Virus record (IMG/VR): IMGVR_UViG_3300028888_000003 | Reading direction: 5' to 3' (one strand) | DNA: 47,370 nucleotides | Source: a virus | Lineage: Duplodnaviria > Heunggongvirae > Uroviricota > Caudoviricetes | In this document: in pieces, positions 1,812-2,921 of the stretch | Position numbering within the stretch: the first letter of the stretch is position 1 | Layout of the letters: the number at the start of each line of letters is the position of its first letter | Notes under the pieces: generated by a model | Told to the model about the DNA's origin: nothing | What the model saw: only the letters and a program-made list of their open reading frames with translations | Database searches by the model: none | Position numbers and translations under genes: made by a program

Positions 1812-2921
1812 TAACTAAAACAAGACGAAGTAAAATCCTTTAAATTGCGGGAAGTTCCTTAGAGCTTTAATAACTAAGTTATATTAGTAATAATATAATG
1901 GCTTTACAGAAAGAGTAAAGGTATAGTAAAATCATTAAAGATTGGATAATCCGCAGCGAAATTTCTTAATTTTATGTATTCTCTCATTAATAAGGTTACT
2001 TATTTATAGGAGGGATATACAATGGGATATAAAAAATTATCAAAAGAACAAGAATTACAACTAATTGAAGAATATCGTAATGGCGCCAGCGTTAATTCCT
2101 TAATGACTAAATATGGTTATAAAACTAAAAAATCTATAACAGATAAAGTTAAAAAATATTATCCACAAGAATATGAACAAATTATTCAAGAAGCTTAGGA
2201 TAATAGACGAGGATATACTTATTCTCTTGAAAAAATCTCAAATCCTTTTGATGCTTATTTAATAGGTTTATTACTCACTGATGGCTATTTATTAAGCGAT
2301 CGTGATGGTATTGGATTGGATATGTGCGATAAAGATGTTATAGAATATGTTGCTAATAGCATTGGAACTACTTATAAGTCTTATAAATAGTCTGGAAATA
2401 GATAGACTAAATATAGAGTATTAATTACTATTCCAGGTATTCAACAACAAGTTGCTCGTTTTGGAGTTATAAAAGATAAAACACATATAATTCCTAGACC
2501 GCAATTATTAGAAGAAGAGAAAATTTTCATTCCATATATTATTAGAGGAATTATAGATGGCGATGGTTGTGTAACAAAAACATCATATGGCAGTCCTCAA
2601 TTTTATATAGTGACTATGTCAAAAGAATTTGCAGAATGGATACAAGAAGTTTTAATAAAAAATTTATTTATGGAAGATATCCATTTAATTCAAAGACCAC
2701 AAGATCATATATATAAAATTGAAACAGCAAATTAGTTCAATATATTGAAATTAATTGCTATTGTATATGATAAACCTTTTGGTATGAGTAGAAAATTTAT
2801 AGAATTAAGAAAGACGTTCAGAGACTATAATAAGGACTTTCTTATTGAAGAAAATAAGAATGATGGTATAGTCCAGACCCCAACAAATTAAAATTGGCTT
2901 AGGAAACTAAGTGGGGTAAGG
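1812..2921 (+). mobile_element. Group I self-splicing intron with homing endonuclease ORF
   Basis: Core motifs: P AATTGCGGGAA (~1843-1853), Q AATCCGCAGC (1948-1957), R GTTCAGAGACTA (2816-2827), S GGTATAGTCC (2865-2874). P1 is exon TTCGTT paired with GACGAA (1824-1829), giving a U.G pair at the junction. P10 is ACAA (1820-1823) with exon-2 TTGT. P8 is TTCTTATT/AATAAGAA and P9 is CTTAG-GAAA-CTAAG. Terminal G at 2921. Confidence 0.93.
2022..2891 (+). CDS. Double-motif LAGLIDADG homing endonuclease (289 aa, 4 in-frame TAG read as Gln)
   Basis: RBS AGGAGG before ATG 2022. Motifs AYLIGLLLTDGY and YIIRGIIDGDGC. In-frame TAG at 2196, 2388, 2403 and 2733, with TAA at 2889-2891. Absent from the code-11 ORF track. 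Confidence 0.9.

Follow-up and report, generated by a model that had tools for sequence, protein, structure and literature searches.

The window, by which we mean the whole 47,370-nt stretch of DNA that was analysed (IMG/VR record IMGVR_UViG_3300028888_000003), belongs to a phage genome that is complete at 139 kb and has a terminal overlap of 127 nt; the samples holding the phage are from ruminant gut (sheep or goat rumen). At the start of the window lies dnaE, the gene for DNA polymerase III alpha, whose first exon extends further upstream than the window and holds no in-frame TAG. The gene is split by a group I intron which itself carries a LAGLIDADG endonuclease gene in the loop of its P6 helix. 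The features of the locus are the following.

1-1811, plus strand: dnaE (DNA polymerase III alpha) exon 1 (Pfam DNA_pol3_alpha and DNA_pol3_finger; junction placed against intronless relatives)
1812-2921, plus strand: group I intron of 1110 nt (partial Rfam match, ORF-less homologue, consensus fold)
1816-1818, plus strand: TAA closing the exon 1 frame, two codons into the intron (read from the sequence)
1974-2002, plus strand: promoter-like box pair ATGTA-N18-TACTTA (pattern search, recurrence in other cassettes)
1975-2021, plus strand: predicted SD-sequestering hairpin, with an outer stem of 1975-1985 with 2010-2021 and an inner hairpin at 1989-2004 (predicted fold)
2022-2891, plus strand: predicted LAGLIDADG homing-endonuclease gene, 289 codons long when TAG is read as Gln (translation, Pfam PF14528, AlphaFold/Foldseek, dN/dS)
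2807-2891, plus strand: dual-use segment of 85 nt, comprising codons 262-289 of the endonuclease gene and its stop (structure map, lowered synonymous divergence)
2922-4440, plus strand: dnaE exon 2 (Pfam HHH_6; junction analysis)

Intron boundaries and ribozyme core

Across 80 related IMG/VR loci the insertion site is mostly uninterrupted, and the intron is distributed patchily at this one site. The closest intronless relatives read ...RVQRGYSF-CR-AHTLAYS at the site, which fixes the intron at 1812-2921, with exon 1 ending in TCGTT, the intron in G and exon 2 starting with TTGTAGG. Exons joined in this way give GYSF/CRAH (GYSF-CRAHTLAYS), the same as in the intronless relatives and with the host frame restored, and the expected ligated-exon junction is TATTCGTT/TTGTAGGGC. 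The alternative junctions FN/KAH and FN/SH were dropped because the intronless relatives show GYSF-CR-AH. A stop to the exon 1 frame inside the intron, such as the TAA at 1816-1818, is usual for phage group I introns.

Contigs from RNA libraries match the window exactly over 1854-2211, 2627-2861 and 2916-3145; such libraries can contain DNA. No join of exon 1 to exon 2 was found among these contigs, which says nothing for or against splicing given that contigs drop rare forms. By the same token the absence of exon 1 from their cover is not evidence, nor do the contigs inform on transcript starts. In the DNA run X3 an intronless allele and an intron-plus variant are present together; this co-occurrence and the patchy distribution of the intron indirectly support cleavage of the intronless allele by the endonuclease.

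A consensus fold of the ribozyme was derived from five homologues, from which the P6 loop was removed before alignment and folding, and it yields P1 and P4 to P9. All the classical sequence elements were located (P 1841-1853, Q 1949-1958, R 2816-2830, S 2862-2874), the 5' splice site lies in P1 at a U1811.G1824 pair, and the 3' terminal G is G2921. The helices were mapped as follows.

1806-1812 with 1823-1829, plus strand: P1, the internal guide sequence (IGS) being 1823-1829 (consensus fold)
1836-1840 with 2832-2836, plus strand: P3 and P3' (added by hand to the consensus fold)
1846-1851 with 1950-1955, plus strand: P4 (consensus fold)
1856-1946, plus strand: P5 plus extension (consensus fold)
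1956-1967 with 2807-2817, plus strand: P6 (consensus fold, covariation)
2823-2829 with 2867-2873, plus strand: P7, with P7'/S as its 3' strand (consensus fold)
2840-2859, plus strand: P8 (consensus fold)
2877-2917, plus strand: P9, P9a and P9b, with the P9 5' strand at 2877-2881 (consensus fold)
2922-2925 with 1820-1823, plus strand: P10 (pairing)

Compensatory changes are seen in P3 (C-G to G-C), in P5 and its extension, and in P6, P8, P9, P9a and P9b; a close variant in run X3 contributes one more such pair to P9, where 2880 C>T is matched by 2914 G>A. A preliminary description of this DNA had placed the start of the endonuclease frame in the P6 loop and had paired a TTTCTT near 1962 with an AAGAAA near 2807, and both placements were borne out. 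TTTCTT 1962-1967 pairs with AAGAAA 2807-2812 across a loop of 839 nt, and in the ORF-less intron of the relative L034 the same helix reads UUUCUC/GAGAAA, a compensatory replacement of U1967-A2807 by C-G. In view of the covariation of this long-range P6, the local P6 closure at 1994-1997 proposed by Rfam was dropped. The 839-nt insertion in P6 is also the reason why no group I intron reached the gathering score in an Rfam search of the window, the hit at the E-value threshold amounting to 14 bits over the 5' half only. The ORF-less 339-nt intron found at the same site in L034 and L075 matches the full Intron_gpI model (RF00028) at 50.6 bits, where the gathering score is 50. The stretch from P7 to P3' is too short to hold P7.1/P7.2, and a td-like IA2 subgroup was therefore ruled out. 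At the level of sequence, the core, the splice-site features and the restored frame confirm 1812-2921 as a group I intron in dnaE.

The endonuclease gene and the reading of TAG

The endonuclease frame lies within the P6 loop, 55 nt after the P6 5' strand. Its ATG at 2022 is preceded by the SD sequence AGGAGGG (2008-2014, spacing of 7 nt) and its stop is the TAA at 2889-2891, with in-frame TAGs at 2196, 2388, 2403 and 2733, that is, at codons 59, 123, 128 and 238. The preliminary description had ribosomes stopping at TAG 2196 under code 11, and translation from ATG 2022 does end there, 610 nt before the core (P6').

When TAG is read as Gln the protein is covered over 100% of its length by more than 600 homologues of 284-291 aa and matches PF14528 (E = 2e-10). 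Its LAGLIDADG motifs, LLLTDGY (with D87) and IIDGDGC, do not vary across 30 homologues, and neither does Q238. The AlphaFold model (mean pLDDT 82, with low confidence in residues 270-289) is matched by Foldseek at a probability of 1.0 to I-Tsp061I, I-AniI and the I-OnuI family, with the bI3 maturase among the matches. In this model residues about 65-269 share the fold of I-Tsp061I, I-AniI and the bI3 maturase, with two LAGLIDADG helices; the protein differs from these three in an identity of just 14-20%, in an additional domain of three helices at its N-terminus (residues 8-46) and in its poorly ordered, ribozyme-encoded tail. Profile, motifs and predicted fold place the product among the two-motif LAGLIDADG homing endonucleases. 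Foldseek matches to the bI3 maturase and to the bifunctional I-AniI might be taken to mean that the protein acts as a maturase, as those two do, in which case late read-through would raise splicing and not lower it. We consider such a role very unlikely, as the persistence of ribozymes without an ORF (L034 and L075) or with a broken one (L014) argues that the ribozyme is independent of the protein.

It could also be supposed that the TAGs are real stops in a decaying pseudogene, of which just a 58-residue N-terminal fragment would be made. L014 does carry a frameshifted, degenerate copy of the gene inside an intact ribozyme, but the gene of the present phage runs for 289 codons without TAA or TGA (none of 5000 shuffles of the ORF was free of both), all four of its TAGs stand at Gln positions, and the gene body is under purifying selection (dN/dS 0.12-0.15). 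TAG is moreover read as Gln genome-wide, including in a 3670-codon ORF on the minus strand which opens under this reading and holds 83 TAGs. Decay is hardly credible in the face of these observations, and by all of these sequence measures the gene is a live one which requires TAG to be read as Gln.

The phage reads TAG as a Gln sense codon in many of its genes. Genome-wide under this reading, 335 TAGs are spread over 60 ORFs and 86 ORFs are TAG-free; within the TAG-bearing class TAG accounts for 37% of Gln codons, at 1.5 TAG per 100 codons. In the relatives L041, L079 and L014, which use the standard code, the giant virion protein homologues are encoded in TAG-free frames of 1800-2250 codons; the giant-virion-protein region of L075, L013, L001 and L010 holds 12-16 TAGs. 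TAG is missing from genes of replication type (dnaE, recJ and the gene for ribonucleotide reductase), and this confinement of the recoded stop to a subset of genes, with its absence from replication genes, is as in the recoding control of Borges et al. In both exons of dnaE together none of the 44 Gln codons is TAG (P about 1e-9 under the frequency of the TAG-bearing class), dnaE is uninterrupted by stops in all 80 relatives, the recoded ones included, and the Dam methylase gene directly upstream of it has three TAGs. TAG-bearing and TAG-free genes are interspersed along the genome, so that the terms "early" and "late" as used here are ones that we infer.

Searches for decoding machinery covered the complete 139-kb genome. 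No canonical tRNA(CUA) was found with Rfam or with ARAGORN, the latter run at default and at relaxed stringency, both allowing for introns and not. There is a single non-canonical cloverleaf with a CUCUAAA loop and a CUA anticodon (genome positions 107087-107160), which is a candidate tRNA-like element only and which neither a DNA similarity search nor a 17-nt pattern recovered from the relatives. Likewise, neither a release-factor gene or RF-1 domain nor a sigma factor or sigma-70 region 2 domain was found in the complete genome.

Alignment of the endonuclease gene with its orthologues showed that all four TAGs correspond to CAA or CAG in the 71%-identical genes of L041 and L079, and three of the four in the 81%-identical gene of L094, the closest orthologue that is TAG-free. 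In L041, L079, L094 and L095, all of which use the standard code, the same intron, endonuclease gene and overlap with the core are present with no TAG; the overlap therefore predates the recoding. Some relatives carry a different group I intron 8 nt upstream with a GIY-YIG gene, which has two TAGs in the recoded L013 and none in the standard-code L003. Every endonuclease gene examined in recoded genomes has TAGs (HNH 3, GIY-YIG 9, L013 2, L040 4), and from this comparison it appears that endonuclease genes acquire TAGs in recoded hosts and that the polymerase gene does not.

A pattern of this kind could be neutral amelioration, in which the TAGs are by-products of a recoded genome that add no regulation of their own; the gene would be late anyway, and CAG-to-TAG changes would for that reason be tolerated. 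In keeping with this, the TAG load of the gene (4 of 18 Gln codons, 1.4 per 100 codons) is no higher than in the TAG-bearing class, TAGs occur in all the endonuclease genes examined, the closest TAG-free orthologue is still 81% identical, and the older control layers described below have been kept. Whatever their origin, however, the TAGs must block full-length translation when suppression is off, and the first of them comes as early as codon 59, far ahead of the core. Neutrality differs from the explanation that we prefer (see below) in selection only and not in effect, and we regard it as possible, if somewhat doubtful.

Overlap with the core and upstream signals

The dual-use segment comprises P6', J6/7, P7, P3', P8, P7'/S and the start of P9/P9a, and the stop codon of the endonuclease gene falls in the P9a loop. 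The preliminary description had the last 25 or so codons of the frame overlapping R/P7, P3', P8, S and the start of P9, up to the TAA at 2889. This overlap was confirmed, at 28 codons instead of about 25, and with TAG as Gln the endonuclease frame does run through the ribozyme core. Synonymous divergence, which is 1.1-1.7 elsewhere in the gene, drops to 0.10-0.48 in the dual-use tail, the invariant tail residues TFRDYN and DGIVQT simply spell out R and S, and the changes in P8 are compensatory as RNA and non-conservative or indels as protein. Judged by these comparisons, RNA constraint dominates the tail of the endonuclease.

[quoted passage not shown] In the LSU rDNA intron of Synechococcus lividus, a LAGLIDADG ORF overlaps P6/P7/P3/P8/P9.0/P9 by 81 nt (Table 1 of PMC3073962); the endonuclease family is the same as here, and the helices overlapped and the extent of the overlap are nearly so. 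The two differ in that the host is a phage protein gene here and rRNA there, and in that the ORF lies in P6 here and in P8 there. As the present host gene is translated, and not an rRNA, ribosome traffic matters at this locus.

Upstream of the endonuclease gene a hairpin of -15 kcal/mol (z = -3.6 against shuffles) is predicted, which covers most of the SD and reaches the base before the AUG. L041 (z = -4.5) and L014 (z = -3.4) both keep the hairpin, whose inner stem shows compensatory changes, and it is predicted to bury the ribosome-binding site of the endonuclease in the precursor RNA. An arrangement of this type silences I-TevI on the td precursor. In the same region lies the box pair ATGTA-N18-TACTTA, which belongs to a small motif family (A/T)TGTA-N18-TACTTA whose members lie upstream of endonuclease genes and others, both in this phage and in relatives. 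In this genome, perfect TTGTA-N18-TACTTA sites precede an HNH endonuclease gene, a GIY-YIG-containing cassette and a TAG-rich operon, at 14-38 nt from the SD and start; six relatives have an extended form, AATTTTATGTA-N18-TACTTATATATAG, upstream of a GIY-YIG gene. The boxes are spaced as in promoters of the sigma-70 type. When 1-4600 was scanned for generic sigma-70 sites, these were no more numerous than in shuffles, and the perfect TTGTA-N18-TACTTA is absent from the genomes of five relatives and is not a family-wide perfect consensus.

It should be noted that few sites of the promoter-like motif are known. As the motif overlaps the hairpin, its conservation may in part be due to constraint on the RNA. 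The arrangement suggests a separate intron-internal transcript, predicted to start about 7 nt after TACTTA and to be devoid of the hairpin 5' strand and of the ribozyme 5' half. Without that half of the ribozyme, such an RNA would be translatable but never able to splice.

Expression of the endonuclease and splicing of dnaE

The reading that we favour, with a probability of roughly 60%, is that of a mobile group I intron with a P6-loop endonuclease whose expression is uncoupled from that of dnaE by three stacked devices. It builds on the observed anatomy of the locus, the code pattern and the comparative series. The first device would be a promoter-like element of the gene's own inside the intron, whose activity is putative. 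The second would be the hairpin, the presumed effect of which is to hide the ribosome-binding site in RNAs that start upstream, the dnaE precursor included. The third would be the four TAG(Gln) codons, which would halt ribosomes at codon 59 if amber suppression is absent or weak. Devices one and two would be ancestral and similar to those of T4 td/I-TevI, and the third would be confined to recoded lineages, its TAGs having been gained after the recoding of TAG as the gene drifted, or was selected, into the TAG-tolerant class.

In the presumed course of events, the ribosome-binding site would be buried in the early dnaE transcript and stray ribosomes would stop at TAG 2196, leaving the core to fold and dnaE to be spliced. 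Later in infection, on the supposed timing of suppression, the full endonuclease would be translated as soon as TAG can be decoded, for the most part on RNA that does not serve as a substrate for splicing, and it is possible that ribosomes then also enter the core of residual precursors. The net effect on splicing, as we infer it, would be that ribosomes are excluded from the core while dnaE needs splicing and that full-length endonuclease is made only with TAG decoding.

The preliminary description had gone further and had proposed a switch, in which the reading of TAG as Gln would let ribosomes on the dnaE precursor unfold P6'-P9, so that splicing would fall and homing would rise. One half of this idea stands, namely the TAG-gated endonuclease in a TAG-recoded phage with its TAGs at Gln sites, and code-gated translation of the endonuclease is well supported; the other half, the shut-off of splicing and the turning down of the polymerase, is without support. 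Although the 85-nt overlap spans the whole 3' half of the core and the SD is a strong one (AGGAGGG at 7-nt spacing), the standard-code relatives evidently tolerate an intron with the same TAG-free overlap, and the hairpin should limit initiation on precursor RNA even late. In T4 td, occupancy of the core by ribosomes during early I-TevI translation impairs splicing, with an overlap of just 20 nt (PMC3073962), but at the present locus the predicted internal promoter would give rise to non-splicing transcripts, for which traversal of the core is irrelevant. The same description had itself allowed that translation of the endonuclease from a separate late transcript would speak against the switch, and it is such a separate transcript that is predicted here. 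Moreover, there is no evident benefit in having less DnaE late, when polymerase made early would persist. We consider the switch unlikely, and the claim that read-through lowers polymerase synthesis finds no support in view of the TAG-free overlap in standard-code relatives, the hairpin and the putative internal promoter. The broader notion that recoding acts on RNA catalysis too, with one code change flipping the locus from polymerase production to intron spread, is decidedly improbable. A literature search found no proposal that read-through shuts down splicing.

Our favoured reading, of an endonuclease uncoupled from dnaE by three devices, has its closest parallel in T4 td/I-TevI, where translation of the endonuclease is delayed (Gibb and Edgell 2010, as reviewed in PMC3073962). 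In both cases a group I intron interrupts an early gene of nucleotide or DNA metabolism and carries a P6-loop ORF whose 3' end lies in core helices, a hairpin (predicted here) covers the ribosome-binding site, and a promoter-like element (putative here) is so placed that its transcript loses the hairpin 5' strand. The endonuclease is of the LAGLIDADG family here and GIY-YIG in T4, the overlap is 85 nt (P6' to P9a) as against 20 nt, and the four recoded TAGs form an extra layer in the present phage. A second parallel is given by the TGA-recoded "Agate" phages, for which Borges et al. (2021; 10.1101/2021.08.26.457843) describe an intron endonuclease with recoded stops in an early gene and propose that it is held back until late. 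Both cases have recoded in-frame stops in the group I intron endonuclease of an early, standard-code gene; they differ in the code (TAG=Gln here and TGA=Trp there), in the before/after series provided here by standard-code sisters with a TAG-free intron and endonuclease, and in the overlap of ORF and core, which is present here and is not discussed in the relevant passage of that paper.

Delayed translation that protects splicing and the overlap of ORF and core have thus been published already (PMC3073962), as has the proposed hold-back by recoded stops (10.1101/2021.08.26.457843). To these the locus adds a TAG/LAGLIDADG case with an overlap of 85 nt, a series of standard-code and recoded sisters, and the three proposed stacked layers. 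The locus offers a clean natural series for testing gene regulation by stop-codon recoding in phages, and the second intron/endonuclease pair (GIY-YIG, L013 against L003) repeats the pattern. It also joins two ideas that had previously been separate, interference of ribosomes with ribozyme folding, as in T4 td, and code-dependent translation. Should the TAGs turn out to affect splicing, a new type of target would be added to those of recoding; if they are irrelevant to it, the locus would be a case of mobile genes adapting passively to the code of their host.

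TAG and Gln codons in the phage genome

Across the whole of C1, the complete 139-kb phage genome to which the window belongs, the TAG-bearing ORFs contain 93 CAG, 470 CAA and 335 TAG codons for Gln and are depleted of CAG; the TAG-free ORFs contain 181 CAG and 294 CAA. Within the TAG-bearing gene class CAG seems to have been largely supplanted by TAG. TAG-dependent and TAG-free genes are intermixed and do not form distinct blocks, as can be seen immediately 5' of the TAG-free dnaE where, just upstream of the window start and on the same, coding strand, two TAG-bearing genes are found:

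C1:64879-65667, coding strand, Dam-type methyltransferase gene (3 TAGs)
C1:66400-67116, coding strand, lytic transglycosylase gene (2 TAGs)

No canonical suppressor tRNA was found in genome C1. Minimum free energy folding of a 74-nt sequence (C1:107087-107160, equal to L086:12087-12160) gave a cloverleaf with the anticodon loop CUCUAAA, i.e., a CUA anticodon, which makes it a candidate amber decoder. Neither ARAGORN nor Rfam detected it, and its D loop and T loop both depart from the canonical form. An odd 77-nt tRNA(UAG) (C1:107172-107248), which is without the long variable arm typical of Leu tRNAs, begins 11 nt downstream of this cloverleaf.

Intron occupancy of dnaE

An intronless dnaE allele, in which CTGTCGC bridges exon 1 to exon 2 at a joint corresponding to window 1811/2929, was present in X3, one DNA read run from goat or sheep gut. 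The same run also holds an intron-containing dnaE variant with 96.6% identity to the window, and homing targets are therefore present within the same community. Within the dnaE motif that the window intron interrupts, at RG|YSF and 8 nt upstream of that intron's site, relatives carry a second, unrelated group I intron:

L003:~6904-7988 (standard-code phage), intron with GIY-YIG gene
L013:~6904-8008 (recoded phage), intron with GIY-YIG gene
L073:~3357-3684, ORF-less intron

More interruptions of dnaE lie upstream of the window intron site in two further relatives (L095:700-1875 and L096:398-2127, the dnaE of L096 having a third gap), and these include a GIY-YIG gene flanked by two DNA_pol3_alpha fragments. 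Conserved polymerase motifs form an intron hotspot in this phage group.

A promoter-like cassette ahead of endonuclease genes

A promoter-like cassette, (A/T)TGTA-N18-TACTTA(T), is located a short distance 5' of the ribosome-binding sequence and start codon in three unrelated endonuclease families (LAGLIDADG, GIY-YIG, and HNH), and also closely precedes a TAG-rich operon:

Window 1974-2002, cassette
C1 83836, minus strand, cassette
C1 131911, 88568, 124412, plus strand, cassette
L027:3641, L040:3626, L042:3523, L047:3538, L058:3558, L074:3641, cassette in relatives

The standard-code relative L014 (L014:6912-8010) has an intact ribozyme core together with a broken LAGLIDADG gene, and mutation has turned its TACTTA box into TATTTG; the locus appears to represent a stage of the usual endonuclease-gene decay cycle. 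Mobile endonuclease genes may have in the cassette itself an expression signal that is either portable or class-specific.
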